Assembly: GCA_965153455.1 (NCBI GenBank)
Contig: OZ234494.1
Location: 7,440,001 to 7,504,000 of the forward strand
Origin: Sphagnum compactum
Lineage: Eukaryota
Reading direction: 5' to 3'
DNA: 64,000 nucleotides
Shown here: positions 16,470-64,000 of the stretch, piece after piece
Position numbering within the stretch: the first letter of the stretch is position 1
How the letters are laid out: the number at the start of each line of letters is the position of its first letter
The notes under the pieces: model-generated
Told to the model about the DNA's origin: nothing
Seen by the model: only the letters and a program-made list of their open reading frames with translations
Databases searched by the model: none
Program-made: the position numbers and the translations under genes

Positions 16470-16940
16470 TGTCAGATGCAGCGGTGGAACTGGGGTTCCA
16501 CTCCTGACAACAGTATGAGCCTTGGTGATGGCCTTCCTTGAAATCAGGGATAATGTGACCCAGAACGGTAGCACCCATCTTGTGTCGATGAACCGCAACT
16601 GAGTTACCAAGGTTCCAACTTGGTAACCTATCCTGTATACCATCCTACTTCCACATCATATTACCCAGAACTAACTATGTAAGTGGTTAAGTGAGCCTGT
16701 TTGTAGCGGTGAAACTAGGTTTCAGTCCTCAAAACATAGTATCAGCCTTGAGCCCTTCCTTGAATTAGGGACTAGCCTATGTGCATTGTGACCTAGCACC
16801 CACCAGTCCACCACTTACTGAGGTAAGTAATGTTCCTAAGGTTCCACCTTGGTAACCCATCGTGTAAACCCTCTCCTCCACCCCCACACCACCTAGGTAA
16901 CTATCTCGGTAAATGGGTAAGTATAAGATGTAACTGGGTA
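16470..16940. repeat. Diverged tandem duplication (~235-bp unit x2) with a related partial copy at ~18770-18900
   Basis: GCGGTG(G/A)AACT(G/A)GG...CTTCCTTGAA...AAGGTTCCA(A/C)CTTGGTAACC(T/C)ATC occurs at ~16481-16635 and ~16707-16862. Confidence 0.7.
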
Positions 16941-19900: not shown

Positions 19901-19959
19901 GTGGTACGAATCGGATACTTGATCAGAGGTTATAATCGGCTTTAGAGAGTAGAGAGATC

Positions 19960-21174: not shown

Positions 21175-22268
21175 TGTCGATACATCAAATTGCTGTGAAC
21201 CAGTTGATCGGTGATCTGCTGCTCCATGATTCGACATTGGCGGCGATCGAGACTGTCCCAGATCTGGCGCAACTGGAGCGAGTACCCTAAGTGGTTTTTC
21301 CTACGACAGGAATCTGCTGGACTTTAGGCCTTGAATTGCAGGGCAGCCATTTAAGGCAAGCATCCAGCTGGTACCAATTCTTGGGTGCAGCAAAATAGCA
21401 CTCGGCCGAATTCCTGGGTGCATGTCCGCATGAGGTTTTGTGCCGGCAGTGAGCTACGTATGCAACACACCCTCGACTATCCTTGACTATCGTCTGCAGC
21501 AGTTGGGAATCCAAGCCTGTTGCTGGTCAGGACTGATCAGGAAAACATACAAGCTGGGCTTTTCTTCATCGTCCACCTCATGCAGGTTGGAACGACATAC
21601 GCAGCTCTCAACTATCCAGGAAGATCTTCCAGGAGTAGCTGAGACGTCGCTGACATAAAGGCACAATATCATGTCATCTCCAACACTTGTAGAACAATGT
21701 AGGTAGAGCAGGTTTATAGTTAGACCAGCTAGAGGTGGACCACTTAGACCTGGGCTTTAGATCCCTTCATAGGACCTCGTCAACGAACATAGATTTATTT
21801 TATTTTCTTGGGAGCAAATGGCAATTTCCATTGCAAATCAAAAAAGAACAACCACAGAACATAGATTTCATTCAATAGAGTCAAACACTAGATATAGTAT
21901 TCCTAGGCAATCGCGATAATTAGTGGATTGAAGTTGCAGCATCGCCTCATCTAGAAATCACTGGTCATGTGCACAAGAGTGCTGGAGTGCTATAGATCTT
22001 CTTCGAACGACATTATTAATTCTAAGTCATTACAGTACAATTTTTGTCAGGGGACTTGATTGATAGTCGATGAGCCACTAATTGGAAGCAGCTCTAGCTG
22101 GTTGAAACAGTAATCGAAACTGGGCTTTATAATTTAACCTATTTGTACAACACTAGCTATAAGTTGTGGATTCATCATTCAAACCTGAGTATTATTTCAA
22201 TGCAGTAGAAACGTTAGTTTCTCGCACTTCAGCTTCATGACTCCCACTGTAAGAAACCAGTCTCCACA

Positions 22269-32489: not shown

Positions 32490-33295
32490 TATTGCCTGTT
32501 TTCTTCACACTGCAGTACTTCTTGAATTCGAGGGAGGTATCAGCATATTATGTACTCATCTCCAGGGGTGACACATCTTGCACATTTCTGTCTGATAATT
32601 GAAAGGGGGAAAATTTGTCAGTCCTTACTAGGACACAAATGACACCCTAATAACCCTGCATGCAAACAGTAGGATATACACATGTTGCCAATCAAGACAT
32701 GAAATGAATCAGCCTGTTATTCACCATATCATGAATCACACCAATCAGCTGCCAATGGAATTTCCACAACACAATCAATCCTCTTTCCTTCAAATTCCTG
32801 TTAATTTGTATGTTTTGAGGCTTGTCAAACACCAACTACTTAGGTGGCATACCAGTCGTTGGACAACAAGGGCATGAACTGAAACTCCAGAAAAGTACAT
32901 GTGTCATTCATTCAGTACGAATGTTGCTACTCGACTTTTTAACAGGAGGTGGGCAGATATTGGTCCTCTACAAACAAATTCATCAGTATCATGCCATTTG
33001 CAAGAGAGTTTAACCCTAACCCTTGGAAATGGCATGGAACTGTTTTCCAAATCTGGTGAAAAAGACATATGCCAGTCATGTTGTGCAGGAGACCAGATGT
33101 TGTAGGAAGTGGGAACAATTCTTCCGACAGCCTAATCATCATCATCAGAAACCCTCAGAATTACAACTCTACTCAATTCAGTCCCATCAATATGGTCACT
33201 GCACGCGCAGTAGTGCATCACAAAATTCAGCAAGAGAAACATATCACCATCTTGTTCAAGAAATCAAATCCTGACCATTTCCATAATTTTTTTGG

Positions 33296-33298
<3 letters not shown>

Positions 33299-33339
<41 letters not shown>
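33299..33339. repeat. (CT)n microsatellite in the probable 5'-UTR intron of PXN
   Basis: Direct read. Confidence 0.9.
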
Positions 33340-33342
<3 letters not shown>

Positions 33343-33468
33343 ACCTGTAAAGTTCTGACACCAACACTGGTTGGATAGCACACGCGCAGGCCAAGACCGA
33401 AATTACGGGACCGTGACAGAAGCGAAAAGAAACACACAAACACCATCCAACTCACAGCAAAGACTCAC

Positions 33469-33720
33469 GGCGTGCGTCGAGGAGGAGGGTTTCCGGACAA
33501 TTGAAACGGGAGAGAGAGCGCCGTCTGTCTGCGACGTCCAAGAGAAACAACCCCAACTTCGATTTTTAATTTGTTTTTGCTGAAAAGATTGAGATATGAT
33601 TGTGCGCTGCTGCCAATTTACAATCGCGGACGAAGATGAATTGGGCCCGTTCCTCCACAGCAACGAACACAACAAAGACTGCGCACCGCACTCTCGTCAC
33701 CGTCTCTCTCGCTCTCTCGA
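33469..33720 (-). other. Probable non-coding first (5'-UTR) exon of the PXN gene
   Basis: GC-rich segment ending at a GTGAGT donor (33468 downward). Candidate acceptor near 32656, upstream of the ATG. Confidence 0.5.
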
Positions 33721-35219
33721 TTCCGGCCAGCGTCCTTTCCCCGGAGAAAGCGAATACCAAATGTATCTTTTCTCACTGCAGGCAGGATCTTGTGACTTGT
33801 GACGCCCAAAGTGAACAAAGTTGAATGCCAGCGGTCGGCGGTTATTAGAAACAGGGAAAGACCCTCGACGGTTTTCATTCCGGCTCTTTGGATTAATGAC
33901 CATGGCTCTCCTGATACAGAACCACGGTTCTCAAAAAAATTCGGGAAAACAGTGAAGACGTACGTGCCTTGTCTCATTGGCACGGTGGGTTTTTTTCTCA
34001 TTTTTGTGATGTGGTGACATGGGTGGCTACGAAAGCACAAGAGATTTAGCATGAGTGGCGAGAATCCCACAGAAGATTTAGGTTTAATGGTGAAAATATT
34101 TGAGGAAACTGTCAAAACAGTAGAAAACTAGAAAAAAACAGGCCTGCACAATAAAAATCTGGTGAAAATTCCTTTGTGATTAGATGCAATCTGGCACCCT
34201 AAACCTTGTCCAAGAACAGAGCTCCAATTCCTGTCGTGGTGGGGTTGCACCTCCCTAGCTAGTGGTGAAATGGAATACCCATGTTGGCCAGTTATTACAA
34301 ATCAGAGCAGACCCCAGCGGTTATGTTGCCAATTCTGCGGATTTGTAGCCGATTATTGGAGGTTAGATCATTGACATGTCAAGTTCTGATTTTTCTGCAG
34401 CAGGGCAGTAGAGGTGCAGAAGTCTGCAACCTCGTACACATAATTTCTGCTTAAACATTTTCAAGCTTCTGATTGGCCCTCCTCCCCTTGTCTCTCAAGA
34501 TGTTGAACTTCTCCCTCTCTTTTTTGGTCCATTTACAAGAAGGCTATCAAATTTTTCATGCATTTATGAGAAGATTATACTGATTTAACTCATAGAAGAC
34601 CACACTTGAGTGACTGAAATCTCTACACAAATCTCTACACTCTTGATGATCATAACGACATCAACAATACAAATTTTCATACAATATTCCAATGTTTCCC
34701 AATAACAGTAACTAACTATCATCAACATAACTTTCTAAATGTGATCAATAGGTCTATATTATCACCAAGAAGACATGGTAAGATTGTAGATTTGGTGGAT
34801 AATATCTCTCACGACCATCTCTTTTTGGGCTATCACCCTTCACTTGGCATCAATTTATTAGTATTTTTTTCTCATAACCTAACTTTATCCCCATTTATGC
34901 ACTCAAGAAATTTTGACAAGAATAGTTCTTCAAGCATTCACATCACTAACCAATTTCTATTTTTCACTAGTCCTCAAAATGGTGCAACACAACCCTCCCG
35001 AAGTTCTCAATAATTGATTATCTTATTAATGCATGTTTCCTAGATTTCCACTTTACACTCTCAACATCTCACAAATTACAACAATGATGCTTTCTTTATT
35101 CAGACAAGTCCATTCATTAATCCCCTAAATCATTTTCATCATTTTCACCATATCTACATGTTTCACTCATGTTCTTGTTCTACACCTATTTGACCTTCAG
35201 ACTCCACTGGACTTTGTGT

Positions 35220-45321: not shown

Positions 45322-46539
45322 TGTCTGTGACAGGGCTTGGGAAGGGGGTTTGGCAGAACCGGCCGGCCTCTAAATATACCCAGATGGGGAAAACATAGTT
45401 TATTTCGACCAATCGATGTAGCTGACAGAAACGAGGTCCCGCAACTGGCCTGAAATGTTCCAGCGCCAGGTGCGGGTCGTGGTGGCGGAGAGACACCTGG
45501 CCTGAAATATCTTTTTTTTATGGGAAACTTTTTTTTTTCCCCTCCTGGAAATGTGGCGATTTTTTTTTTTTTTTGAAAATTTTCCAAAATGCTCGCTTCA
45601 CCATGTATGTTTTCATGGGGGACTTTTCAACGGATTTTCATCACAAAAAATAAATAAAACAAAAATAAAAATAGTTGCTTTGCTCCTTTGTGTGTGTCTC
45701 TCTTGGTTTAAAGAAACCGGGGACTTCACAGTGTCCAAAGGTCACGGGTACCCACTAGTTTGACTAAATTCACTACTCATATTACAATATTCTAATAGAT
45801 GATGGAAAAAAATTAAAAATTAAAAATAAAATAAAATATAAATAAAAATATAATTTCAAATTTTAAAAACGAATTCTATTTTTGCAAAAAATACATTATT
45901 CGTTTTGTCACTGTGGAAACTGACCCTACCTACCAGTTCCTATTACCTACCTACAAACCAGGTCTTGATTCACATGGTGGTGATCGGACTGAGCACTTTC
46001 TGGGAACCAACACTTTTTTGGGCGTGACAGCAGGAGGAGCCTGGAGGAGCCTTTTTTTTTACGTTTGTCTGTCTGTTTGCTTGTGTGGATCACACGTGTT
46101 CCAGTTTGATCGTGCCGCGCATTTTCCATGCTCTTTCGGAACCGGTGATCATTCCGCGCATAATTTTGGCGTCGAAACAAATCGAAAGAAAGTCGTCACC
46201 AGCAGTAGTAGTAGGCTAGCAGTGTTTTCAATTTATTTTATTGGCGAAATTTCGCCAAATTTCGGCCTGAAAAATATATGATTTCAATGGATTTCTCATG
46301 GAAAAAACATTGCCCAAATTCGCCAGATTTCGGGAAATTTTGTTTCAAATTGCCAAGTTTTTTTATGATGAGTTCCAGTAGGTACCTATTTAGCCAAGCA
46401 TATCGAAGGATTCTGGTTTTTTTAAAGAAAAACTTTCATATCTAGTATATAGCCAAATTTGGCTAAATTATTTTTTGTATGATTATCACCAGGGATTTCT
46501 GTTTTTTTCCCAATTTTCTGTCGCTGGGTCATTGGGTAG

Positions 46540-46576
46540 GGCTTGAGTGAATTAGCAGCCACCAATGCACCAGTTG
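46540..46576 (+). repeat. Left terminal inverted repeat of the MULE
   Basis: GGCTTGAGTGAATTAGCAGCCACCAATGCACCAGTTG, versus the right-end reverse complement GGCCAGAGTGAATTAACAGCCACCAATGCACCAGTTG. Confidence 0.9.
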
Positions 46577-46871
46577 AGGATGAGCCCGTTCAACCCGTTT
46601 TGAGGATGAGCCCGTTCAACCCATTTTGGGGATGAACCAAAACCACATCCGGACTGCCCAAATATTTTTTTTTTCTCCCGCCTCTACTCTGCCCCAAAAC
46701 ATTTCTCCCCTACCTACCTTCCTCCCCCCTCCTACCTACCCCCTCCTACCTCCCCCCTCCTACCTACCTCCAACGTCTTACCTCTAATCGCCATCGCCAG
46801 AGCACCACAGCGAGAGCAGGAGCACCATCGCGGGAGCACCACAGCGAGAACGGGAGCACCATCGCGGTGCC

Positions 46872-49643
46872 ATGTGTAATCAAGGAAGGTCAGGATTGAG
46901 CTATTGGTCACCAAACATAAACATAGTCAGAGATCCTCGATGGGGAAGGACACAGGAAACACCAGGGGAGGATCCAAAGCTTACGAGTACATATGCAGTC
47001 TACTTTGTAAAGGGTCTGCAAGAGGGACATTATGATGGTTCCCAGATCCACACTGCTGGGGGGCCAAAGCGGTTAAAGGTTTCTGTGTGTTGTAAGCATT
47101 TTACAGCTCATGACTTGGACAGCTGGAAAGGCTATGATCGCAACTATTTTGATGCGAAAGTAAGTTCCATATCCCTCTGCTCCTCAGCATTTTGCTTTCC
47201 TCTAAAGTTCAATGCTTTACCTGCTCCTTTTCAGCTGTGATTTTGTCTCAAGCCCAGTTCATTTTACTGCTGGTTTGTGTCTTTCTATGGACTGATTTGT
47301 CCTCTTCTTATATTTGCTTACCTGGATGGGTAGACAAATGTAAAGCATTGTTTGTTTTAGATGAGCATATTCACCAAGTGAGGGAGATGTCCAAATGCAG
47401 TTTGAATTTTGAAAGTCAAGAATCAGGAAGAATTGTAGAATTCTGATTTAAGAACCTATGGGTTCAAAAGTACATTTCCAGAATCAAATCCTGATTGAAA
47501 CCTTCTCTTGATTGGAACTCAGACCTTCCTACGGATGATAGCTTAATGATCTCAAGAATGTGGTCAGGTGAGTCTGCAAGACTTGGAGGACACTTATAAC
47601 CCACCTTTCAAGAGCTGTGTGAAAGAAGGGCAGTCCAGTAGCCTAATGTGCTCCTACAATCGTCTCAATGGAATTCCTATGTGCAGTCACTATGAGCTTC
47701 TCACTCTCACTGTCCGCAATATTTGGGGCTTTAATGGGTATGTCACGACCTTCAATTGTTTGTGTTTTAGGTTTTGTGCTTGAAGTTGAAGATGAACTGT
47801 TATGAAATCTTAAGATGCCATTTGGCAACAGATTTTATATCAGTTTTTTTGTTGCAGGGCAATTGCAAAAGGGTTTTGATTGACAGAAACTTGTTGTTGG
47901 CTGTAGGTACATTGTGTCAGATTGTGATGCGGTTGCACTAATACATGAATACATCCATTATGCACCTACTCCAGAGGACGCAGTCTCTTATGTTTTGTTG
48001 GCAGGTGCTCCTCTTGGTGTTGGACAATTTGATACTTTTGTTGTGATCTTTAATCACTTTGATTTGTGGGAACTCTGAAAGGTAGGTCACCCATGAGAGA
48101 CATGCCCCAGAAAATGAACTGAAACTTGAGATGAATTTTTCAGGTATGGATCTTAATTGTGGAACGACAGTTTTATATCATGCTCAGGCTGCACTAGACA
48201 AGGGATTAATTTGGGAGGAACTTATAAACATGCACCTGCGCAACCTGTTCTCTGTGCGGATGCGATTGGGGATGTTTGACGGAGATCCTGAAACTCTTCT
48301 GTTCGGCTCACTGGGACCATCTGATGTTTGCACCACTGGTCACCAAAATCTTGCTCTTGAGGCTGCTCAACAAAGCATTGTTCTGTTGAAAAATGATAGA
48401 AGTGCACTTCCATGGAACAAAACAAAAAAGTTCAAGGTGGCTGTGATTGGCCCTCATGGGAATGCAACTCAAGAGATGCTTGGTAATTATGAAGGTATAA
48501 TTGGGCCATCCTATTGATTCCTCAAAGTGATTCCTCTTGACATCTTATAGTAATGTGGGTTGCCAGTACAAGTGCAACTATTCTGGCCTACCAACTCTGA
48601 AGCTTTCTGTGCTTAGTCAGTATTTTTGAAATGTCACATGTTGTCAAACTAATTGTCATGGCAAAGTTGTGAGTTTAACCCCAACATGCCTAAGGTTTGT
48701 AAGATTGGTCCCCTTAGGCACATAAGGGAAAATCTGTTTGCTTCCAAGGTTTTGCCAAAGCCTAGTCTTATCAGAAGAGTGAGAATTAGAAAGAGACTTG
48801 TCATAAAAAAAATTCTTTGGGTTTCTGCAGGCATTCCCTGTAAATTTACAAGTCCTTTGGATGGAATAAAAACACTTTTTGGGGGCAATGGGCAAAGTGT
48901 GATTTACGCACCTGGATGTGCTGATGCAACTTGCAGAGATGGAAATCTCTTTCCATTTGCAGTGACTGCTGCCTCAGAAGCAAATGCAGTTGTCTTATTT
49001 GTTGGATTAAGCCAGGCCCAAGAATCAGAAGGACGGGACCGTGAAAGTCTACGTCTTCCAGGCAAGCAAGAGGAATTAATTTCAACTGTACTAGATGCTG
49101 TTAACGGGCGCCCAGTTGTGTTCGTAATATTGTCAGGTGGGCCTGTTGATGTCTCATTTGCAAATGACGATGAGCGAGTTGGAGGTATTCTATGGGCAGG
49201 CTATCCTGGACAGGCTGGTGGTCAAGCAATAGCAGAAATCATCTTTGGTGATGTGAATCCAGGTAATTTAGGTGCCTTGTTAAATGCAATGACTTGGTCT
49301 CTGATTTGGTTTAATGAGTGAAACCTCTGGTGCAGGTTCTAGGGGAAGAATATTTGAGGGTGGGGTTCTGTTTCATAATAATTGTCAGGTCTCAATTACT
49401 GGATGGCTAGCTCCAGGATGTAACAAATGAGAACTGGCACGATGGGTGTTCTATCTCCTGCATATGGAGGTTAACTATTCTGTTATGATGACAGCCATAT
49501 GCTATAAGACACGTTAAGTGTTGTGATTGAAATGAACCTTTTTGCTCACAGGTTGTGGATGTTTTGATTGGTGTGATGTTATAGGAGGCCGATTAGCTCT
49601 TTCATGGTACCATGAGAATTACACACAGATGGATATGTTTTGA
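46872..49643 (+). pseudogene. BXL: Captured internal fragment of a GH3 beta-D-xylosidase/arabinofuranosidase (BXL) gene; open spliced frame of 465 aa
   Basis: Exons 46872-47159, 47568-47737, 47907-48004, 48144-48494, 48831-49262, 49585-49643. Motifs [80 protein letters not shown]. Lacks the signal peptide/N-terminus and the C-terminal Fn3-like domain. Confidence 0.9.
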
Positions 49644-49690
49644 TCCAAGGTGTGTTACGGTTTAATTTGGTGATTTTTGGGTGTTTGTAG

Positions 49691-49847
49691 GGTTCAGGAC
49701 CAAACAAAGGCCCAGTTTGTTGCAAATGCAGTTCAGATTGAGATGCAACGCTGCCATCTTTACACTGCTCATCATGCAGCAAAGGTTGCAAATGCAGCAG
49801 CTGCATATCGAGCTAAACACGGGATTGTAGATACTGATATGGGTTAG
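49691..49847 (+). pseudogene. Orphan terminal exon of an unknown, probably element-encoded gene
   Basis: After a TGTTTGTAG acceptor it reads VQDQTKAQFVANAVQIEMQRCHLYTAHHAAKVANAAAAYRAKHGIVDTDMG*, followed by T-rich, 3'-UTR-like sequence. Not BXL-like. Confidence 0.45.
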
Positions 49848-50959
49848 GGTTTCATTTTATATAATTAGTAAGGTTTTGTAGCCCTTTTCTTTTTTGGACT
49901 ACCCAATTTTGAACTTTGATCCTTTGATATGTTATAGTGATCCAATGTTTTTTCTTCATTGGGTTCTCTAGTAATTTTCCATGCACCCATTTTTGTACAT
50001 CTTTTATTAATATAATAGTATCGGCTACTCACACTTGTTTGATGTGTATTTGGTTAATCCTATATGTCTTCTTTGTCATAATTTTGTTTGTACTTGAAAT
50101 GTAAGAATCAAATCAAAGATCAAAATAAACATTATACAATACTTACATCTAAGTTAATAGGACTCACATCACTTGAAGACTTTAAAAATAATCCACACAT
50201 TTTAAACATATAATACCCACATCATTTTCTATTATGAACTCCATAAGACCATTTTCTAATATGCAATACCTGCATATAACCTCAAAAAATAGCCACAGAC
50301 ATTTTGCATTAAATGCAATACCCGCATATAAGTCCCATAATAGGCAATGGCCTTTTTCATTCATTGCAATACCCTCATATGAGTCCCATAATAGCCGCTG
50401 GCATTTTGCATTCCTTACAATACCCACATAAAGGGCACAAATAATCATTGACATTCTTCATTCGTTGCAATACCCGCATATAGTCTCCAAAATAGCGACT
50501 GGTTTTTTTGGGTTCTCTTGCAATACCCGCATATAGGTCCCATAATAGTTGCTGGTTTTTTCATTCATTGTAAAACTTACATTTTGTCATAAAATTAATT
50601 TAGAATAATATTTAATTTAGGTATATAAAAAGACATAATTTTGGTACCCAGACCATTTTTGAAATGACATTACATGCGAGTATTGCATTTAGGGTTTAGG
50701 GTTTTCACATATGCTTTCCTCCAATCACCTATGTATTATTTCAGTATGATCTTGCAAATATGTATTGCATTTTTTTGCATATAAAATTCCCCTTATAATG
50801 CACCATAGATTTATTTCATTTACTATTAATTTGTAAAAAAACTGTTAATTAATTTAGGGTTTCCCAAACTCTAAATTTCAATCATGGATTCCCAATCAAC
50901 AACCCTAACCTCCATACACACCTTTGTTAGCATATGATTTTGAAATTAACTAGTTATTT

Positions 50960-51112
50960 TAGAGTGACCCTAAATGCAGGTATTGCATTTAGGGTAAGAT
51001 CTTCATTTAAAAAAGGCTTAAACCCCACATGCGTATTTTTTGTGTGACCCAAAGTGCAGGTATTGCATTTAAGGTAGGATTTTCGTATAAAGATGCTTAA
51101 ACCCACATGCGT
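50960..51112. repeat. ~80-bp satellite block of the MULE (x2)
   Basis: GTGACCC(T/A)AA(A/G)TGCAGGTATTGCATTTA(G/A)GGTA...CTTAAACCC(C)ACATGCGTA starting at 50964 and 51044. Confidence 0.85.
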
Positions 51113-51246
51113 ACAATAGCCTCCCGCCTAAGTACGCAACTTGAACCTGGGAGGAGTGTGCGTACTTAGCCGGTAGGTGCGCACTTAAGACCAATCACTT
51201 TTCTTTGTAGCCACAACAGCAGCTTTAGCAACATCATTATCAGTAT

Positions 51247-51710
51247 CCTAAACCTAAACCCTAAACCTAAACCCTAAACCCAAAACCTGAACCTAAACCT
51301 TAAACCCTAAATTTAAACCCTAACTTAAACCTTAAACCTTAAACCTAAACCCTAAATCTAAACCTAAACCCTAAACCTTAAACCTAAACCTAAACCTTAA
51401 ACCCTAAATCTAAACCCTAACTTAAACCCTAAATCTAAACCCTAACTTAAACCCTAAACCCCTAAACCGTAAACCCTAAATCTAAACCTAAACCCTAAAC
51501 CCTAAACCTAAACCTTAACCTTAAACCCTAAATCTAAACCCTAACTTATACCCTAAACCCCTAAACCCTAAATCTAACCCTAAACCCTAAACTTAAACCT
51601 AAACCCTAAACCTTAAATCTAAACCCTAAACTTAAACCTAAACCCTAAATTTAAACCTAAACCTTAACCTTAAACCCTAAATCTAAACCCTAAACTTAAA
51701 CCTAAACCCT
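51247..51710. repeat. Degenerate interstitial telomere-like array (CCCTAAA/CCTAAA/CCTTAAA/TCTAAA)
   Basis: ~460 bp of variants of the plant telomere repeat. Opposite-orientation TTTAGGG units follow at ~51755-51775. Confidence 0.9.
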
Positions 51711-53326
51711 CTATAATGCATTGTAGATTTATTTTATTTACTATTAATATTTGTAGGGTTTAGGGTTTTAGGGTTTACCCAACCTTAACATGTGAAAACC
51801 CAACCCTAAACCCTAAACCCCTAAAATATTATATGTATTGAAAATGGATCAACAGTATAATTCCATAATATCATTATTTATGTATTAGGTTTTATAAATA
51901 ACAATATATTTGGACCAATATTTAAACCACTATTATGTGTTTTGATTTTTTTTTAACACAATTTAAAATCTCATTAAATTAAAGACTTTATATTTACGTT
52001 TTTAGTATGAATATACAACTTTAAAAGGGGAAAAAAAATATGAACATCTTTGAAAAATATTTAAGCTTGAACTTTTTATTTTTTGATCTTCACAAACTTT
52101 GTATTGCATTTAGGGTTGGGTTTTCACATAAGGTTTGTTTTTTACCTTTGTGTGATAACTCCAACCTAATTTTCCCAATCTCTTTCAGGAAGATATAGAA
52201 TGCAATTGTATTGTTTCACATATGTCTAAACCCTAAAATTTTCCCCCCAATTTAATATAAAATATTTATGATAATTAATGAATTATCAATAAAATTTGTC
52301 ATATAATTAAATAATTAATAGACCATTATTTTAGATAATTTAGATGATTAATTATGAAGAATTAGATAATCATTTATTTATTTAAAATAATTAACCAATC
52401 ATTTGGCTTAAATTTATTTACTTGAAAATAAAAAGTTGGATTTAATCAGATTAATTAATTTGATATTTGATTGACTAAATTTAGTATATTTTTGTTTTAA
52501 TAAGTTATTGGAATCATTATTTAAGATAATTATTCCATGTTATAAATTGCAAGTTCAACTTTTTCATGAAAATTTCTTACACCAAAATAAGCTTGATCAC
52601 AATTGTCATTGTACTATTTGTTCCACAAATAATAGAACCTCTTTTCAAATTCATGAAAAAAAGTAAGGGTTAACTAATTATTTTAGAGTGACCCCAAATG
52701 CAGGTATTGCATTTAGGGTAGGATCTTCATTTAAAGAAGGCTTAAACCCCACATGCGTATTTTTCGTGTGACCCAAAATGCAGGTATTGCATTTAGGGTA
52801 GGGTTTTTTGAAGGTGACTTTGCGTCTGCATATTGTGTATAGGGCTAGGTCTTCACTTAAGGGTACCCAAACCATTTAGATGGGTTTTGTTTTTACGTGT
52901 GGGTATTGCATCTAGGCTTGTTTTTCATTTAAACTTGCAATACCCGAACTTATACTTACATATACTAACTGGAATGTTGGGGTTTCATTGCAATACCTAC
53001 ATCCATACTTACCTTTACCAACTGGAATTTTGGGGCATAATTGCAATACTTGCATTTGTACTTACTTTTACCAACTGGGATTTTGGGGCCTAGTTACAAT
53101 ACTTGCATCTAACATTAATATTATCATTATCCTTGTGTGTTTGCATTTCACACTTTTTGTGCTTATTATTTGGAAACAATAATAACCTTTGTGCCATATT
53201 GGACTTCATGTGTGTTGAATACATGATGTTCAAAGAATTTGGGGTATGATTTCCTCCATACAACATTGATTCTAAAAGAAAATTCTTAGTGCTAATGGCA
53301 ACAATCTTGATTAGTAATTGAAACAT

Positions 53327-56046
53327 TTATTCATGACATCGTTTAGTACGTACATTTGTGTGATTGAGCATTGTTTCATGCCAATCTTTGAGCCGTTTGA
53401 CACTATTTCCCAATCCATCTTCTACACGGCGTAACACCAATCCTGGGTGTGAAATTGCATTTGCCTTTGTGAGGCGTATGTTACGAATATTACATGCCAA
53501 TATTCTCATGTATGAGGTGGCATGTTCACAAAGTGTCACAACGCCTTCTTTACATTCATTTGTGATCTTTTGCATTGTAGTGACCAATTGTGCAAGAGCC
53601 CTTTCCATTGGGGTTGATGACATTATTGTCTCATTAGACCCTACAATGGCACCCATAGGGAGATCATTTTGCTCCATGTTCATGAGCCCATCAAATTCCA
53701 TGATCCCATCATCACCTTCAAGATGATCATCTTCGTCATCATCACTAGACTCCATATCATCTGGAATATGTTGCGGGTCTGCAAACATGTGACCCAACCC
53801 TCCACGATGTGATCCATACCATGTTCCACAATAATGAATGATATCCTCTTGAGAAATGTCTATGCATGTGAGAATGACCTTAATTTGGTGTTTACACATG
53901 TTCGCTCGCAATGCCCATTCGCATGTGCAACAAAACATTTCGGTGAATGGGAATTTCACCGTGTAAATAACATTGGGAAGGCGCTGGCTCCGTACGGCCC
54001 AAGCTCCATCACTCTCAAGGGTTGGTTGGTACACATGGCTGATTGGAATAAGGGCTGCCTTCTCCACACTTTGTGTAATAATGGCTTCCATAACCTTGTT
54101 TTTTATGAAACCCTTCTTTTTCATTTCCAATGTGTGCATGTAGTGGCGTGCAATGGTTGTTGTTAATCGCCACACCAACCAGTCAATCCTACGCCCTCTA
54201 AGGCCTCTTGTGTCAAGAGCAAGCCAACGTTTCAACGCACCATGATATGAGTCAATGCTCGCTTGGGTGTCTTGGTTGGAATGGGCACTCTTCGAACACT
54301 CACCATCCATAATTCTACAAACATAAACACAATACACAAGGATGAATAACATTATACAAAATAAATTTGAATGCTGAACCATGATAAGTATTATCACTTA
54401 CCAAATTGATGGTAATAAGTCCAGAAATAGTTTGTCCACGCATCACCAGGCCTATGTTTATGAAGGCTTTCTCTCACAGCAACCCTCCCACGCTCTTTGA
54501 AGTCATCAATTGTTTCTCCATGATTGATGGACATGTACATCACATCATGAAGGTCTTGGAGGATTCCACCCCGCACTTCCACATCTTTGATTTTTTCAGT
54601 ACCACGTAGGCGCCATGCTTTGAGAACATGCCAACAACAAAGGTAGATGGGAACCTTGTCCATACCCCATACGACCCTAATAAGGACACATATGCAATAA
54701 AATATCCATGAGTGGATGGGGTTAGTACAACATAAAATGCATTTGAAATAATCAAGAATTTTATGAAAGATATTAAAAAAACATTTAAGGAAATAAACAC
54801 AAAGTCAATACTAGGTATAGAACTAACCGTAATGCCTTCAATTCTTGAGGTGCATCATCAACGAGAAAACATGATGGTTTCCAATGTGGCATGAGTGATA
54901 ACATCTTCTCTTTTAATGGTTTTAACCATTCGATCAAATCTTGCACTGTTTGCCTACCTGTAATGATCCAGGCTAAAGGGACACTCGTGCGATGATCATC
55001 AAATCCCATCAAGGTGAATAGATGGAATTTCATGTCATTTGTGCCAAATGTGGCATCCATAGAAATGGCACCATTGTGACCATATGATAGCATGGACTCA
55101 CATTGAGTTGGTGTTTGAATACCTATGGTGAATGGGACTTGACTTCCATTCATTTCACCAACATCTTGGAAAAAGAACACATCTTCCGGATGTTGGAGAG
55201 CCCAAGACCGAATTGAAATTGCAGGGTTAGTGTGTAAACGCCAACTCCCTTTCTTATGTTTTCGATCCAAATATGCAATGTCTTGAAGCCGAATGAAATC
55301 ATCTCGTGTCATGCTTTGACCCGCATTCACACGTTCCCACCAAATTGCTTTATGCTTGTCATATATTTGTTTGGGGGTATAACCTAAGCTTAATTGGGCC
55401 CATATGTGGTCTTACAGTGCTTGTGACATGCGTGGAGCATAACGAGACATACGAGAAATGGACTCTGGGTCATGCTCACCATGTGCGAATGACCCATCAA
55501 TTTGTGTATGGGCCTTATGATAAATTGTGATCTCAGCCACATCAGGTCGTGTGTATAGACGTTTGATTGAGAATGACGCTAGGCATCCTCGTTTAATAGA
55601 TCGAGTGTGGGTTGAATTTTTTCGATAGTCCTCTGGTCCATATGCGCATTGATACCTAGACCAAAAAACTTTCAAAATGTAAATGATTACATATTTGGTA
55701 TATGAATTAAATAAATTAAAAAGGTTAATGCCATAAATGTTTACCATGTATGCCCGAGGTGGTTTTTGATAGTTGGATGCTTGACATCCGTTTGGCTTGG
55801 AAAGTTTTTGTAAACACTCCATTCCACAGGGGTGCTCGTATCCCCTCGTTCACCTTCCAAGAATTCCGAGATGCGAGTATACAGAACATAAGCAAATTGA
55901 ATGCTCACTTTATTTTGCCCTCCATGGCGTATCCCAAACGTCCACACCAAGTCTTTGTTTGAGAAAGGGGACTTGGTGGGGTTTTGGACATGAATGGAAT
56001 GGGACTTTGGAACCCTTCCCATGATTGAAGGAAGTAGGACAAATTC
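53327..56046 (-). pseudogene. MULE (Mutator-family DDE) transposase with SWIM zinc finger, disrupted
   Basis: Exons 56046-55745, 55655-54828, 54676-54402, 54314-53327. Motifs SMDATFGTN (D1), FLVDDA (D2), LCCWH (CxxH), TQASIDSYH (expected E is D) and CTC...CKH (SWIM). In-frame TAA at 55412-55414 and an apparent 1-nt deletion near 54284. The true first exon was not located. Confidence 0.88.
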
Positions 56047-57517
56047 CTGCATCAAGAGAATTTATAATTCTCTAAACATTCATCATTGAACAAAAACCCA
56101 AAATGCAATACATTCATGGCTCCTTTAAAATCAATGTTGTGACTTGGAATTCCCATTACAACACCCATATCATGATATAAAAAACCTATTATTCCAATGT
56201 ACATAACGTACAACACTTGCATTATGAACCCATATACTAAAACAAACTTTGGCAATACCCACATTGAGCTATTAAACCTTCCATCATTGAAAATTTTCTC
56301 ATATGTAATACCCGTATTGTACCTTAAACCCATAATGTCTGAAAACCCCATGTAGCAATACCTACATAATGATAATTAATGCACACTGTTTGAAAGGTGC
56401 AAAATGCAATACCTGCCTTAAGCCATAAAACCCACACTGGTTGTGGGTAGTCAATGCATAATTCGCATATGGGTATGAAAAAAAGAACTACAAAGAAATA
56501 TTGAATATGAAATATCCATGTAAAAGTATAAAACCTTTATCTATGCTTGTATATTTAATGAAACTTGATGCCCTTTCTATATCCAACAAGTAGGAAATGA
56601 AAAGAGGTTGAATTATGAAAAATATAAACAAAAAAACAAAAGAAGTAACAAGAGACAAATGCATACCTTCAAGAATAAAAGATGACAACGTTCCACCAAA
56701 GTTTATAGTCCCAATTGAAAACGCAACCCTAAAAAATCATAACTCGTAAAAAAATGGGTTAGAAAATATTAAACCCTAGCAACTATGGAACATATGGAAA
56801 CAAAGGAAATTCAAATTATGGTATAGATCTAAACAAGTGAAAAGATCAAAAACCAATACAATGAACAAAATTTAGAGTATAAACCTTAGGTTTTGAAATA
56901 TATGAACCAAATTCTTATACACTAAATAATAAAGCATAACCTTTAAAATTCAAATGATATTTTGCCATAAGCCTTATTACAACCCTATTTATACAAACCC
57001 TAACAAGAAAAAGTCTTACTAATATATGTCCTAAACCCAAAAAACTATACAAATTATACAAATTATATAATGAAAAATACGTTAATCTACAAAAACAATC
57101 AAATAATTTTCATACAAAACCAAAAGAGAAGATATGTCTTTTACCTTTGTGTGATCTCTCCAACTTAATTTTTTCCACTCTTTTGGAAGAAGATATAGAA
57201 TGCAATTGTATTACTTCACATATGTGTAAACCCTAAAATTTTCCCCCCAAATTTAGCCTACTTTAGATTAATTACTATACATTTGTGAGAAACTTATGAA
57301 CTAATTTATGTGTCTCAACCCTAAACCTAATGGTTAAGTTAGTAGGGTATGTAATTAATAGAGTAGCTAGGTTAGTAGGGTAGGTGGTTAGTACAATAGC
57401 TAGGTCAGTAGGATAACTAGTTATTAGGGTAGCTATGTGAGTAAGGGATAATAAATAAGGTATGAAGGTTGGTGCAATACTTATGAGGGTAGGAAAGTGA
57501 GCAGGGTAGCTATTTAG

Positions 57518-57712
57518 AGTGACCCAAAATGCAGGTATTGCATTTAGGGTGGGATCTTCATATAAATAAGCCTAAATCCCACATGCGTACTTTCGACGTG
57601 ACCCAAAATGCAGGTATTGCATTTAGGGTAAGATCTTCGTATAAAGAAAGCTTAAACCTTACATGCGTCCTTTAGGAGTGACCCAAATTGCAGGTATTGC
57701 ATTTAGGGTTGG
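57518..57712. repeat. ~80-bp satellite block of the MULE (further blocks at ~52688-52805, 58640-58845, 59365-59555)
   Basis: Unit core CCCAAAATGCAGGTATTGCATTTAGGGT, starting at 57519, 57598 and 57678. Confidence 0.85.
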
Positions 57713-59594
57713 GTTATTTCAAAGTGACTTTGCATATGCATATTGTGTTTAGGGCTAGGTCTTCACTTAAGGGTATCCAAACCATTTAGATGGGGTTTTT
57801 TCAAACGTGGGTATTACATTTAGGTTTGTTTTTTCATTTCAACTTCAGACTTATACTTACCTTTACCAACTAGAATTTTGGGGTTTCGTTGCAATACCTA
57901 CACCTGTACTTACTTTTACCAACTGAATAGTTGCCGACATTCTTCATTCGTTGCAATACCCGCATATCGATCCATGGTATTCGTTGGGTTTTTATAACAT
58001 TCGTTGCAATACCCGCATATAGTTCCCATAATAGCTGCTGGTTTTTTTTGGCATCTCTTGCAATACTCGCATATAGGTCTCATAATAGTTGCTAGTTTAT
58101 TTTTGATCTCAACAAACTTTGTATCGCATTCAGGGTTGGGTTTTCACATAAAGTTTGTTAATTACATTTGTGTGATAATCCAACCTCATTTTCTCAATCT
58201 CTTTGAAGAAAATATAGAACGAGATTGTATTGTGTCACATATATCTAAACCCAAAAATTTCCCCCCAATTTAATATAAAATATTTCTGATAATTAATTTA
58301 TTATCAAATAATTTAGATGAATAATTATAAAAAATCAGATTGATTAATTTGATATTTGATTAATTAACTGAAGTATATTTTTGTTTTAATAAGTTATTGA
58401 AATCATTATTTAAGATAATTATTCCATGTTATAGATTGTAAGTTCAGCTTTTTCATGAAAAATTCCTACACCAAGATAAGTTTGATCACAATTGTCATCG
58501 TATTATTTGATCCACAAACAATACAACCTCTTTTCAAATTCATGAAACGAAGTAAGAATCATGGAACTCCTAATCAACAACACTAACCTCTATACACACC
58601 TTTGTTAGCATATTAATTTGAAATTAATTAATTATTTTTGTGTGCCCCAAAATGTAGGTATTGCATTTAGGGTAGGATCTTCATATAAAGAAGCTTAAAC
58701 CCTATATGCGTCCTTTCGGAGTGGCCCAAATTGCAGGTATTGCATTTAGGGTAGGATCTTCGTATAAAGATGCTTAAACCCCACATGTGTATTTTTTGTG
58801 TGCCCCAAAATGCAGGTATTGCATTTAGGGTGGGATCTTCATATAAACCCTAACTATACAAACCCTAACAAAAAGAAGAATTAGTGATATATGCCCTAAA
58901 CCCAAAAAACTATATAAACTATACAAATCATATAATGCAAAATAACCAAATTTAAAAGAACATAGGAAAAAATTTAGAAACCAAAATTCAAAGGTTTTTA
59001 ATTATAAATATTTATTAACTGAAAGAAAATATGTTAATCTTTAGAAATAATCAAATAAATTTCGTACAAAACCAAAAAAGAAGATATGTCTTTTACCTTT
59101 GTGTGATTTTTCCAACCTAATTTTTCCATTCTTTTTGAAGAAGGTATAAAATGCAATTGTATTACTTCACATGTGTGTAAACCCTAAAATTTTCCCCCCA
59201 AATTTAGCTTACTTTAAATTAATTATTATACATTTATGAAAAACTTATCAATTAATTTATGTGTCTCAACCCTAAACCTAATGATTAAGTTAGTAGGGTA
59301 TGTAATTAATAGAGTAGCTAGGTTAGTAGGGTAGGTGGTTAGTACAGTAGCTTGGTTAGTGATGTGACCCAAAATGCAAGTATTGCATTTAGGGTATGAT
59401 CTTCATGTAAAGATGCTAAAAGCCCACATGCGTACTTTCGAAATGGCCCAAAATGCAGGTATTGCATTTAGGGTAGGATCTTTGTATAAAGAAAGCTTGA
59501 ACCCCACATGCGTACTTTCGAAATGGCCCAAAATGCAGGTATTGCATTTAGGGTAAGGTTTTTAGGGTAGGGTATGTAATTAATAGGGTAGCTA

Positions 59595-59730
59595 GGTTAG
59601 TAGGGTAGGTGGTAAGTACAGTAGCTAGGTTAGTAGGGTAGGTGATGAGTACAGTAGCCAGGTTAGTAGGGTAGGTGGTGAGTACAGTAGCCAGGTTAGT
59701 AGGGTAGGTGGTGAGTACAGTAGCTAGGTA
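59595..59730. repeat. 33-bp subterminal tandem repeat (x4)
   Basis: GGTTAGTAGGGTAGGTG(G/A)T(G/A)AGTACAGTAGC(T/C)A repeated. Confidence 0.9.
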
Positions 59731-59909
59731 GAAAAGTGAACAGGGTAGAAAAGTGAGCAGGGTAGCTATGTGTGAGGTCAGGTCCAGGGAAAAACGAGCA
59801 AGAAAAAAAAAAAAAAAGTACAGTGGTCAGCAGCAAAAAGAAATCGACTGTGATGAGCCCCATCCGGCGCCGAATGAAAAAACGCAACCCATCCAGTGGA
59901 CAGAACGGC

Positions 59910-59946
59910 CAACTGGTGCATTGGTGGCTGTTAATTCACTCTGGCC
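59910..59946 (-). repeat. Right terminal inverted repeat of the MULE
   Basis: CAACTGGTGCATTGGTGGCTGTTAATTCACTCTGGCC followed immediately by the TSD ATTGGGTAG. Confidence 0.9.
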
Positions 59947-60511
59947 ATTGGGTAGCATCCTGAGAGGGATTTAGCATGACAACAGGTTAAAATTTTTCTT
60001 TTTCCAAGTTTGGCAATTCTGTCAGAAAAAAAAGGGGAAAAAACTAATTAAAAAAAAATGCTACAAAGCTATAAATCAAATTCCAAATGTGGCGAACAGT
60101 TTTGAAACAAATCATTTTTAGAATATTGGCGATTGTTTGACAGCAAACGGAAAATATAGTGACAGAATAATATTTCATATTTTTTTTGAAAAATTCCCAT
60201 TTTCTCGAAATTTAGCATTTCAAAAAAAAAGCTGAGATTCGCCACCTTGGCTACATCACAAAATCCTTTTTAAAAAAAAAAACAGCAGCAGCACCTGCAG
60301 GAGCCAGGGCATGGCGGAACAGCAGCCAGCAGGTCGCAATTTGATTTGCCAGATCGGGCACAGACGTGCACCTCTAAGGACGGGAACGGGAAAGTGTTTT
60401 GTTGTTTGTTTGTTAGGTGTGTGTGTGTGTGTGTGGGGGTGTGCTTTTTTCGCGGTTTTTTACATGCTGCCGCCTCCCATCGCTGCTTCGTGAGCTTCTT
60501 CCTTCCTAATA

Positions 60512-60632
60512 ATTTTTCATGGATTGCAATAAAACTCATGATTTTTCAAGGCTGCTTGCAATAAAAGTCATGATTTTTCAAGGATTGCAATGAACGCGAT
60601 GATTTCTCAAGGATTGCAGTAAAAGTCACGAT
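60512..60632. repeat. ~29-bp tandem repeat (x4) upstream of the ABCB start codon
   Basis: GATTTTTCAAGGATTGCAATAAAA(C/G)TCAT-like units. Confidence 0.8.
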
Positions 60633-60968
60633 GATTGAGGAAGAGGGGAGAAAAAAAAGTTTTTTTTTCGCATGATGGCTGTTCCTTCTTCCTTGGAGAC
60701 GCTTTTTTTCTTTTTCTTTTTGGGTTTATTAGTGCTTTGAGATTTTGGGAGTTTTAGGCGATTTGGATGGCTTGAGGTTTTTGTGGGTTTTTGTGGTGCT
60801 GCTCGTGCTCCTATAAAGATTTGGTTGTAGGAATTAGTAGTAGTAGTAGTAGTAGGGAGTTCAGGAATTGTGTGTGTGTGTGTGTTTGTGTATGTGGGTG
60901 CGAGTGTTGTTGGCTTTTTATTTTTTGCAGCAAAGGGAAGGGAAAGGAAAAGGACGGGAGGCCACTGA

Positions 60969-63900
60969 ATGGGGAAGAGGAATGGATACTTGCCGGAGAC
61001 TCCAGTGTTCAATGGCACCACCAATGTAAGAGTCGCAAGCAGGCAGCGGCGGTGGCGATTGGCGATATTCATTTCTGTCTTTTGCGTCGATCTTCTGTTT
61101 GCGCTGGTAATCCTTTGTGCAAAGTCTTCTTCTGTATAGTATTGCCTGTCCTTGTTTTGCCTTTTAGGTTTACCGTGCCCCGATGAGATTTTTTCTCAAA
61201 GCTCTGGGGTTTACATATTGCGGATACCCTATCACCTCTGGAGTAGGTATAGAGATCTGTTGTGGTTTATTTGGCTGAATTTGTTGTCTCCACAGATGTT
61301 GAGCAGGCAATGCAAATAGGGACAGTTAAGTTAGTTTTTTCAGAAGAAATTTATTTTTCAAAGAAGATTCACTCTGAGAATCCATAGGGAGGATGGAAAA
61401 TCTTGTTGGATGTGGAACGGTTGCAGCTCTTATACAGAAGATTTTTTAGTTTTTAAAAAATTTCTGAGAATCTGTAGTGAGGGTGGGAAAAAATTTCTTG
61501 CTGGATGTGGAACGGTGTTGCAGCTCTTGTACAGCACAGTGCATTTTTGGAGCGACAAGAATGATTTTTCATTGAGTGGGTTGTGGCATTCGCTGACATG
61601 CTTTACCACAGACACCTTGGATTTAGTTCTCCTGAGTCTGCTGCGGTTGGGGAGCCTTTCGGGGCTTTCCTATTATGGGAGTGTGCTTGCTTGTGTGGAA
61701 GCTGTGGACAAAGAGAAGAAGGTCAAAGGCAGCAGCAAACCACAGCACTCACAGCAGCCAACGAACAGGAACAACACTAGTAAAGTGTACTCACGTGCAG
61801 CAGGTGCCAACATCAATGGAGAGTCTCATCCTAATGGCAAATTATTGGAGAATGGAAGCCTTAAAGAACCACTGCTGTCCAAGAAGGACTCAGTAGCTGT
61901 TAAGGCTCCTGCAAGTTTCTATCAAGAGTGGTTTGCAGGATCATCAAGGAAAGATGCTGTTTTTCTTGTTGTCTTTCTTCTTTGCACTGGATTCCAGGTA
62001 CCCTCTTTGTTTCATCCTTTTCTGGCTGACTGCTCTATGTGTCAGCCCCTCTTTTGTGTTATGTATAGGAGAAGGGTAGGGCCAGAGGCTCTTCCTTGTT
62101 TTGAGGTGCCTAGGCACAAGGGTAGAAACCTGACTGACAGGCACTGAAAACAAGGATGGGCCAAGGGTCCTACCCTTCTACATCATAAAAAGGTGCCCTA
62201 ATTTTCAGAGGGTGTGAGCTTCCACCACAGAAGATTTCTTCTATTTCAGAAGATCCTTGCTGAGTTCTTGCACCTGACAATGGTCGTCTAAATACACTAC
62301 AAAAATTAGGGCAGGTTTTTACATGGTGGAGAGAGATGAAATTTGCGGCAGTTGTTGATGATGATGAACCATATGGAGGTTTTGCAGTTTATCAGATTAA
62401 TTGGTGGGCATGGGTGATATGTGGTGAACCTGTAGGCATATGTGGGGGCCAAGTGTGTCGGGTTTTCTTTTGACACTCTGCATAGACTGTTCAACGTGCG
62501 GCTTGAAATATGGCAAAGCATTTTGATGGGCACCACAGTTCTGTGGATAAATGCAGAAAGCTCCATGTTGACGCGTGTTGTGGACTCCAACCGTGTGCTG
62601 AGTCGTGCCCATTTTCTCAATGCCAAGCACACAGCCCAGGACCTTGAAGGTTCTCGAATTATTATTGGAGCTATCAAGTAGGAAATGCTTCCTGTGATGG
62701 ATCTAAAATGCTCATTAATCAGCTTGCAATTTTTTTTACAGCTGCAATGCTGCTATATTGGGTAAGTGCAGAATTGCTCTTCATTTTAGTAGGTAACAGT
62801 CAAATGGGCAACTTATAATTTGGGAGGGTGTAATGGTTTTCAGCAATGTGAATTCTGTGGAAGCTGAGGAAGGGACTTTGAGAGGCGACAAGGGAGTAAG
62901 AGAGGAGCAAGAGGTGGACCAGACTAGTTACTTGATGCGGGCAGTGTCTCTAGCTCGGAATGAATGCCTTCTGCTGTCCTGTGCTTTTTTCTGCCTTATG
63001 GTGTCATCTGTTTCCAGCTTGATCCTGCCAAATTATCAGGTTTTTCTCACTCTCACTTGACTGCTCTTATTTTCATTTGTGTTAGAAGAAATTTATGTCC
63101 AATGTATGTACCCATGTGAGAGTTCTCTTGTAATTTGCTGGTGCCAAAAGAGGAAACTCAAGCTATTGTTAGTGCTCACAGCATTGTGTTTAATTTCTTT
63201 CACAGGGTCGAATATTGGATCACGTGATTCAAGGAGCAGTAGCTCTGTTCAGGAGGGATGTGATATTGTTGATAGTCTTTAGCTTGGTGACCGGCCTTTT
63301 TGAGGCAGTTCGAAATCTATCCTTCACAGTGGTGAGCAAGCGTGTGTTAAAGACTCTGCAGGACAAGCTTTTCACAGGCATTGTGATACAAGACATTGCT
63401 TATTTTGATGGCACTACATCTGGAGAGGTCAGCAGTCAAGCTTTCAGTTTTTGAGTTTATTACATGAGATGGATAACCTTATCAAGCCCTGGTGTTGAAA
63501 CAATTGAAGGAGGTGTCATTTCCACTTTGGGGATTCTTTTTGTTTTACTCATGTTATTTTGGTGGCAGAGACATAAAAGGACTTGCTCATGAGGTGTAGG
63601 TTCCGTTGACATGAGAGTAAGAGTATACTTTGGTGAAACCTGATTATATTTATTTTGTGCACTATGAACAGCTGACCTCAAGGCTCACCAACGATGTGTC
63701 CTCAATGGCTGAGCCTGTGAACTGGATGCTTTCAGCACTTTTGCGAAATTTGCTCGCACTTGGCGGTGGATTTGCAATGTGCTTCATCATAAGCTGGAAG
63801 CTTAGCATGCTTGCTTTCACTACCATGGCTCCCATTATGCATATAACGGCTGTGTACTCTCGGTGGTCTAGGGAGCTTAATCGCAAGCGATATGCTTTGC

Positions 63901-64000
63901 TGGCAGAAGCAAACTCCTCTGCTGCAGAAGCTCTAGGAAACATAAGAACAGTGCGTGCCTTTTCCACTGAGGATGTGGAGATCGATCGATTCAAGTCAAA
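60969..64000 (+). CDS. ABC transporter subfamily B half-transporter (TAP/TAPL-like), 5' part; runs off the window
   Basis: Exons 60969-61025 and 61168-61242 (tentative), then 61524-61997, 62436-62677, 62844-63039, 63206-63427 and 63672-end; phase-consistent. ABC_membrane motifs LILPNYQGRILD, LFTGIVIQDIAYFDGTTSGELTSRLTND, ISWKLSMLAF and AAEALGNIRTVRAFSTE. Confidence 0.88.

Follow-up and report, generated by a model that had tools for sequence, protein, structure and literature searches.

Within a 64,000-nucleotide stretch of the Sphagnum compactum genome (contig OZ234494.1, positions 7,440,001 to 7,504,000 of the forward strand; hereafter the window), we describe a 13.4-kb Mutator-like element (MULE) at 46540-59946 that is bounded by terminal inverted repeats (TIRs) and a target-site duplication (TSD), is repeated, transcribed and spliced, and carries a transposase gene on the minus strand. 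We read the sequence at 53327-56046 as an autonomous-type MULE transposase gene, now a pseudogene, of a land-plant lineage that also contains two host genes of angiosperms, and we put the probability of this reading as a whole at about 0.8. The window copy by itself is an ordinary dead transposon; it is the evolutionary link to the angiosperm genes, which are of the AT1G60560 and AT4G13970 type, that carries the interest.

The element ends in 37-bp TIRs that agree at 34 of 37 positions and is flanked by a perfect 9-bp TSD, and homology to other copies ends at the TIRs, in keeping with the initial annotation, which had described a copy bounded by both. Metagenome contigs scanned with the last exon gave 514 candidate stretches, 448 of which encode relatives. 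Locus comparisons were made with the best 80 of these 448 (70-91% identical), and 39 of the 80 span the coding sequence (CDS). Together the 80 loci cover the window from 46540 to ~46750 and from ~49500 to 59946, except for 51251-51750, and none covers sequence outside the TSDs. The element terminus recurs 41 times in 31 of the 80 loci; one locus, seen twice (L036/L037), holds a complete 10.2-kb element with the gene, another (L071) a 4.1-kb derivative, and both have 9-bp flanking repeats that match at 8 of 9 positions. Because the gene, its flanks and its spacing to the TIR are common to other copies, the gene is the family's own and not cargo. Separately, pairs of family members were seen lying end to end with their termini facing apart, with a spacer of 9 bp in L036 (355-385) and L037 and of ~13 bp in L078 (630-660). 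The 9-bp spacer in L036 doubles as the TSD of the complete element, which hints at insertion adjoining the end of an existing copy.

The peptide blocks from which the transposase was initially recognized all lie inside 53327-56046 on the minus strand: VQNPTKSPFSNKDLVW, YTRISEFLEGE, KRGCLASFSIKRL, YAPRMS, RDDF, PFTIGIQT, DATFGTN, VPLAWII, FLVDD and CCWH, together with a SWIM pattern CxC-x9-CxH (FCCTCEWALRANMCKH). One further block, WYQCAYGPEDYRK, exists only across spliced intron 1, a splice that is seen in RNA contigs. The coordinates assigned to the gene were also exact, since the stop codon ends with base 53327 and base 56046 directly follows a splice acceptor. Read from the DNA, the gene has four coding exons with GT/AG borders, to which RNA contigs add an upstream 5′ exon. 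Contigs from moss and plant metatranscriptomes skip introns 1 and 3 exactly as predicted, with CT..AC ends on the plus strand that correspond to GT..AG for the transposase gene, and neither joint occurs among the 7375 aligned contigs of DNA run X1. As the contigs of RNA runs X16 and X17 are nearly identical and may be one data set, we count two independent sources. Removal of intron 2 is suggested by the reading frame and by gap-free alignment with relatives. RNA contigs were aligned to the window at 90% likeness and may therefore derive from other family copies, and contig depth is uninformative on expression level. They continue beyond 56048, where 27 letters match 56669-56695 at 26 of 27 positions (0 matches expected by chance); the upstream exon thus ends at 56667, followed by a 620-nt intron, and with an in-frame stop and no ATG in the coding phase it is a 5′ untranslated region (UTR). 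Once a stop codon and a single-base deletion in this copy are both bridged by X, the frame is 789 residues long.

The CxxH motif after the second catalytic aspartate is a mark of the MULE superfamily. Pfam MULE (PF10551) matches the exon-2 translation downstream of the TAA stop, at 54842-55411 on the minus strand, with an E-value of 1.5e-6, and the majority state of the family is a complete set of D, D, E, CxxH and SWIM residues. Among the 39 other copies that span the CDS, the first catalytic D is kept in 35, the D2 pair in 32 and 36, and the E in 36; the C of CxxH is present in 36 and the H in all 39, and the window copy reads CCWH. The SWIM pattern C-x-C-x9-C-x-H is present in the window, and its four ligands are retained in 32-38 of the 39 copies. 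The FAR1 DNA-binding domain (DBD; PF03101) and the MuDR-type DBD (which we take to be PF03108) are absent both from the window exon translations (E≤1) and from 18 relatives (E≤0.01), and at E≤1 neither the N-terminal domain nor the SWIM region of the window exons received a Pfam assignment. Against solved structures the profile described below gave no meaningful match, the best being a chance match at E 0.29.

The window copy is a dead transposase pseudogene. Its TAA stop stands where all 45 aligned other copies have AAG or AAA (Lys), and the C missing from exon 4 is present in all 74 aligned other copies and in RNA contigs. The third catalytic residue, an aspartate, is likewise private, being E in 36 of 39 other copies and D in none. 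With its frame closed by the stop and the frameshift, and with the E-to-D change in addition, the copy does not qualify as an autonomous MULE. Decay extends to the family: every one of the 39 CDS-spanning loci is broken by 2-16 in-frame stops or further frameshifts. These loci represent 30 distinct copies, or 31 with the window copy added. Among the 31, two copies differ on average by 10.8% at first, 9.8% at second and 9.0% at third codon positions, and by 10.1% in introns. The lack of codon-position bias indicates that the copies diverged free of selection, as they would following a single burst, and within the sampled loci the family is old and dead. An intact autonomous copy elsewhere in the genome, still able to mobilize such elements, would fit with the spliced transcripts of members in RNA runs and could have escaped a sample of 80 of the 448 stretches with 39 spanning the CDS; we regard a living family as improbable nonetheless, since all 39 loci (30 distinct copies) carry 2-16 stops and ~10% pairwise divergence that shows no codon bias speaks for one burst long ago.

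To place the family, we built a profile from the window exons and one liverwort protein and ran an exhaustive protein search, which was used instead of a word-index search with the MULE exon that returned a single match, in Riccia. At E≤1e-3 the profile matched 4087 representatives, of which 107 pass E≤1e-30. Together with the Pfam MULE match and the 448 related stretches, these numbers go well beyond what chance would give. The matches of high identity are short fragments of the moss family itself, and full-length matches are at most ~31-37% identical. The nearest full-length proteins, ~30% identical, come from a liverwort, a fern, conifers and two angiosperm-wide groups, which we call A and B. 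The names retrieved for 30 clusters comprise many Riccia sorocarpa paralogs, Adiantum, Cryptomeria, Taxus, Mesostigma, a tick and several angiosperms. Some relatives are repeated, with at least 10 representatives in Riccia and a Taxus cluster of 18 near-identical members. The MULE-type proteins of the tick (P0136) and of the streptophyte alga Mesostigma (P0104) match at E ~1e-27 to 1e-32, so that the lineage in its wider sense extends beyond land plants.

Group A (P0025, P0278, P0279, P0215; 670-748 amino acids) was found by searching with one angiosperm match and is hit by the profile at 9.8e-63. Its 119 best other matches are 71-88% identical to the query and extend from Magnolia and Nelumbo to asterids, and among the names given to its members by their sources are "SWIM zinc finger family protein" as well as "hypothetical protein like AT1G60560". 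Group B (P0044, P0031, P0358, P0367, P0079; 655-1217 amino acids), likewise conserved and found with a different angiosperm match as query, is hit by the profile at ~1e-56 to 7e-47, and several of its members are named "zinc ion binding", the label that AT4G13970 carries in a table of PMC6265505. Groups A and B, which are presumably the orthologs of AT1G60560 and AT4G13970, are equated with the Arabidopsis proteins through these source names only.

An alignment of 54 rows shows what the moss family and these proteins share. The N-terminal blocks IPxxRxxxFxxGE, YWCxYGPxD, RGCxxxFxVKRL and APxIS are common to the moss family and its relatives, and the parallel drawn initially with At4g13970 and At1g60560 holds across the blocks, N-terminal ones included, when these are aligned with groups A and B. 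The positions of D, D and E are kept in the angiosperm rows, and WR replaces WH in 13 of 13. The initial annotation had described the Arabidopsis genes as lacking the CxxH motif, and for the presumed ortholog groups this proved correct: at the position of the CxxH histidine of moss, liverwort and fern transposases, the angiosperm rows carry R. Outside the angiosperms, the histidine is retained in several rows besides those of the moss family. Pfam MULE matches none of five angiosperm proteins and 10 of 13 other full-length relatives (8 above the cut-off), and it occurs in 0 of 240 precomputed rows of the group A and B searches.

From this alignment a quick tree was made with 46 rows, after dropping 8 fragmentary ones, and a careful tree with 38 rows and 693 columns, after dropping a further 8 (2 long-branch, 3 family copies and 3 of group B). 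The two agree, and supports are given as UFBoot / SH-aLRT. The moss family forms a clade with fern rows and two Riccia rows (94/94), Cryptomeria, Taxus, an Amborella gene and groups A and B form a seed-plant branch (96/95), and these two branches are sisters, united at 97/97. Within the seed-plant branch, groups A and B form a clade of their own at 100/100 that excludes the moss family. A second Riccia clade, Mesostigma and the animal rows fall outside the 97/97 clade. A land-plant clade thus holds both the moss family and the two conserved angiosperm gene groups. The initial annotation had expected the element to stand as sister to, or to enclose, the At4g13970/At1g60560 group; among these rows, which leave aside the classical MULE families, the moss family does share a clade with A and B and does not group with unrelated MULE clades.

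Several observations weigh against our reading. The tree rows do not include MURA, Jittery, FAR1/FHY3, MUSTANG or the two Arabidopsis proteins, the moss family (100/100) sits on a long stem of 1.29, and the Adiantum and Logan rows join it with weak support (79/24). It is only ~29% identical to group A, and among repeated relatives, conifer sequences come closer to the angiosperm genes than the moss family does. In the protein, the Pfam MULE score barely exceeds the cut-off (29.0 against 27.6 bits), Pfam SWIM (PF04434) has no match to the window exon at E≤1 and scores 16-19 bits in relatives against a cut-off of 19.6, and Pfam offers no DNA-binding family for the N-terminal domain. The moss family also replaces two Cys and one His that are conserved in relatives (CLAS for CxCH and AHG for CHG). 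At the transcript level, intron 2 is skipped by no RNA contig and several contigs read through it, and because no intact copy occurs among the 39 CDS-spanning loci, transposase activity is read from motifs only.

Some of these points would suit an alternative in which the likeness to AT1G60560/AT4G13970-type genes reflects no more than a generic MULE-plus-SWIM architecture and the family really belongs to one of the classical MULE clades: that of MuDR, of Jittery/Hop, or of the progenitors of FAR1 or MUSTANG. The absence of any classical family from the tree and the ~29% identity to group A would allow this, and the Atlas structure neighbors of the fern relative include FAR1-RELATED SEQUENCE clusters (TM ~0.57). 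We nevertheless consider it quite unlikely, given the strong matches of groups A and B to the moss-plus-liverwort profile and the 97/97 support of the clade. FAR1, FRS, MUSTANG and MuDR names occur in 0 of 30 named clusters, no Pfam DBD family is found in the window exons or the 18 relatives at the thresholds given above, and the moss family shares N-terminal blocks beyond the catalytic core specifically with A and B.

That the gene is instead a pseudogenized host gene, a moss ortholog of the SWIM genes simply lying inside a Mutator element or captured as Pack-MULE-like cargo, is very improbable: it has introns as a host gene would, and the same element carries a captured glycosyl hydrolase family 3 (GH3) fragment, but dozens of copies hold the gene with the same flanks and a similar distance to the TIR (~2.0-2.8 kb) whereas GH3 sequence at 47001-49500 occurs in 0 of 80 loci, relatives are encoded by 448 stretches, D, D, E and CxxH are the majority state of the family, and the differences between copies fall without codon-position bias, which is what dead repeats should show.

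On our preferred reading of a MULE transposase gene within a land-plant lineage, which the bounded element, the aligned blocks and the tree all support and which agrees with the transposon lineage proposed initially, an intact protein of 789 amino acids would combine an N-terminal Cys/His domain of DNA-binding type, an RNase-H-like DDE core with CxxH and a C-terminal SWIM finger. By analogy with characterized MULE transposases, it would bind the element ends, cut at the 37-bp TIRs and reinsert the element with a 9-bp target duplication; DNA binding would fall to the N-terminal domain. The family probably went through one old burst followed by neutral decay. The window copy has in addition taken up part of a host glycosyl-hydrolase gene and a telomere-like array, and ~2 kb of its interior has been rearranged. 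The lineage would still be repeated in liverwort, fern and conifer genomes, and its angiosperm members would be two conserved low-copy host genes, both without the CxxH histidine.

Groups A and B are probably domesticated descendants of such transposons and not the reverse. Somewhat short of an even chance, in our estimate, is the broader proposal that the AT1G60560-like and AT4G13970-like genes are a third angiosperm-wide domestication of a Mutator transposase, with mobile ancestors persisting in mosses, liverworts, ferns and conifers. If so, these ancestors survive as TIR/TSD-bounded elements, the H-to-R change in CxxH marks the switch from DNA cutting to host function, and the moss family provides the first complete anatomy of the mobile form, with its TIRs, TSD, gene structure and transcripts. 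Two angiosperm genes without assigned function, present from Amborella to asterids, would gain an origin in a clade otherwise made up of ordinary repeated Mutator transposases, and the moss family would show what they likely looked like while mobile. The histidine of CxxH would be the concrete residue lost, and one idea is that these proteins bind DNA through the conserved N-terminal domain without cutting activity.

Table 1 Features of the element and of its transposase gene, in window coordinates.
Feature	Position	Strand	Remarks
Left TSD ATTGGGTAG	46531..46539	.	Identical 9 bp at 59947-59955
Left TIR, 37 bp	46540..46576	+	34/37 match to reverse complement of 59910-59946
Captured GH3 (beta-xylosidase-like) exons, private cargo	46790..49321	+	Pfam matches
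Family-shared 3′ non-coding region with 50-80-bp sub-repeats carrying GTATTGCA	49500..53326	-	Found in 12-77 of 80 loci in every 250-bp bin outside 51251-51750
Degenerate telomere-like (CCCTAAA)n array, ~600 bp, largely private	51208..51825	.	Repeat families D1, D6
Exon 4: third catalytic residue, SWIM finger, acidic tail, stop codon	53327..54314	-	RNA joins 54314 to 54402
SWIM zinc finger	53929-53885	-	Exon 4
Third catalytic residue, D in window copy, E in family	54253-54251	-	Exon 4
Private 1-nt deletion in C run	54283-54285	-	Exon 4
Intron 3	54315-54401	-	Skipped in RNA runs X15, X17
Exon 3, with CxxH motif CCWH at 54636-54628	54402..54676	-	Frame, GT/AG sites
Intron 2	54677-54827	-	Frame and homology only
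Exon 2: N-terminal Cys/His DNA-binding-type domain and MULE core	54828..55655	-	Pfam MULE 1.5e-6
Catalytic D2	54859-54854	-	Exon 2
Catalytic D1	55057-55055	-	Exon 2
Private TAA stop	55414-55412	-	Exon 2, in frame
Intron 1	55656-55744	-	Skipped in RNA runs X15, X16, X17
Exon 1, likely start ATG 56022-56020	55745..56046	-	Met in 37/39 other copies
5′ region of element	56047..59909	-	Includes extra ~2 kb
Intron 0, 620 nt	56047-56666	-	RNA contigs
3′ end of upstream non-coding exon (5′ UTR)	56667..56695	-	RNA contigs
Right TIR	59910..59946	-	Inverted match to left TIR
Right TSD ATTGGGTAG	59947..59955	.	Identical to left TSD

Apart from the gene, the window copy differs from canonical copies in several parts of its anatomy (Table 1). 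The GH3 cargo lies directly inside the left element end in three reading frames, with Pfam matches to Glyco_hydro_3 (9.2e-12) and Glyco_hydro_3_C (1.4e-30). The bins at 47001-49500 match 0 of 80 loci, and the bin at 46751-47000, which includes the first 210 bases of the fragment, averages 1 locus. The fragment sits where canonical copies have in common ~2.3 kb of 3′ sequence absent from the window copy. This sequence (L032 8500-10750 and its equivalents) is low-complexity and repeat-rich, and in the 3′ region of L032 no open reading frame was convincing as a second gene. Within the telomere-like array, bins 51251-51750 match 0 of 80 loci, and the adjoining bins are common to other loci. At the other end, an extra ~2 kb at ~57520-59560 is rearranged family sequence missing from canonical copies, made up of pieces that lie 3′ of the gene in those copies and of a second copy of 5′ sequence (81% alike). 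The distance from TIR to exon 1 is 3.9 kb in the window, compared with ~2.0-2.8 kb (mostly ~2.1) in 12 loci among those listed. The 8-mer GTATTGCA has 39 matches in the window against 3.3 expected, 32 of them in the non-coding flanks of the gene within the element; it occurs in both orientations, in arrays at 50262-53049 and 56104-59546 that are common to other copies. As a guess, these sub-repeats may be binding sites for a protein such as the transposase. Elsewhere in the window, G+C content is 0.41-0.50 at 16000-22000, 28000-34000 and 60000-64000 against ~0.27-0.37 in the remainder, and these stretches are probably genes or other elements.

Hoen and Bureau reportedly listed 67 exapted genes in 2015. 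In the literature that we searched, which did not extend to that list, we found no description of At1g60560 or At4g13970 as transposase-derived; the two codes occur there as table entries only, and they are absent from 10 supplements of PMC5715367. The same literature yielded nothing related on the SWIM zinc finger family in combination with MULEs, and a full-text search for a mutator-like transposase in Sphagnum found no paper. The moss family adds a well-bounded, transcribed MULE family to a sparse record of bryophyte DNA transposons. MULEs as such, their capture of host fragments and the host genes derived from them are well known, as PMC4948706 and PMC6446971 set out.

Among known systems, MuDR/MURA and other TIR-MULEs have a 9-bp TSD, a DDE core with the MULE domain, CxxH, a zinc finger and a capacity for host-fragment capture. 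The window element resembles MuDR/MURA in its 9-bp TSD, MULE DDE core, CxxH, zinc-finger pattern and captured host fragment, and differs in that its TIRs are only 37 bp long, Pfam detects no MuDR-type DBD, and the 3′ part of a canonical copy yielded no second gene. In PMC6446971, MULE TSDs are given as 8-11 bp and TIRs as commonly hundreds of bp long. FAR1/FHY3-FRS and MUSTANG are the two well-studied plant gene families of MULE origin, and the moss family would repeat their history, as part of a transposase lineage from which conserved host genes of angiosperms descend; unlike FAR1/FHY3-FRS, neither the window exons nor the 18 relatives have a FAR1 DBD. PMC4948706 describes the other novel exapted genes from its authors' earlier study as not close to MUG or FRS. 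A Pack-MULE carries fragments of host genes and has no transposase gene; the window element does carry a GH3 fragment, yet it also holds the family's own transposase gene.

Nearer to the moss family are the full-length proteins of Riccia sorocarpa, Adiantum, Taxus and Cryptomeria (P0015, P0063, P0012, P0030, P0074, P0020), which are 28-32% identical to it and annotated as hypothetical only. Pfam MULE is found in 3 of the 4 searched (P0012, P0015, P0020, P0074), above the cut-off in P0012 and P0015, and CxxH is kept in 2 of the 6 (P0012, P0020); the moss family differs from this set by the three replaced N-terminal Cys/His residues. Group A has the domain order of the moss family and its blocks all the way from the Cys/His domain at the N terminus up to the SWIM finger, and keeps D, D and E, but it is one conserved protein in which CxxH has become (S/C)xWR and Pfam MULE finds no match. 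Group B, as the sister of A (100/100), has these blocks too and shows the H-to-R change in CxxH as A does, and differs in its longer proteins with extended tails and in a link to AT4G13970 through a generic name. Compared with these AT1G60560/AT4G13970-type genes, the moss family stands outside the A+B clade and keeps the histidine in the window copy and in 39 of 39 others, and whereas host genes exist as one or a few intact copies, the moss family comprises 448 related stretches in which all examined copies are broken.

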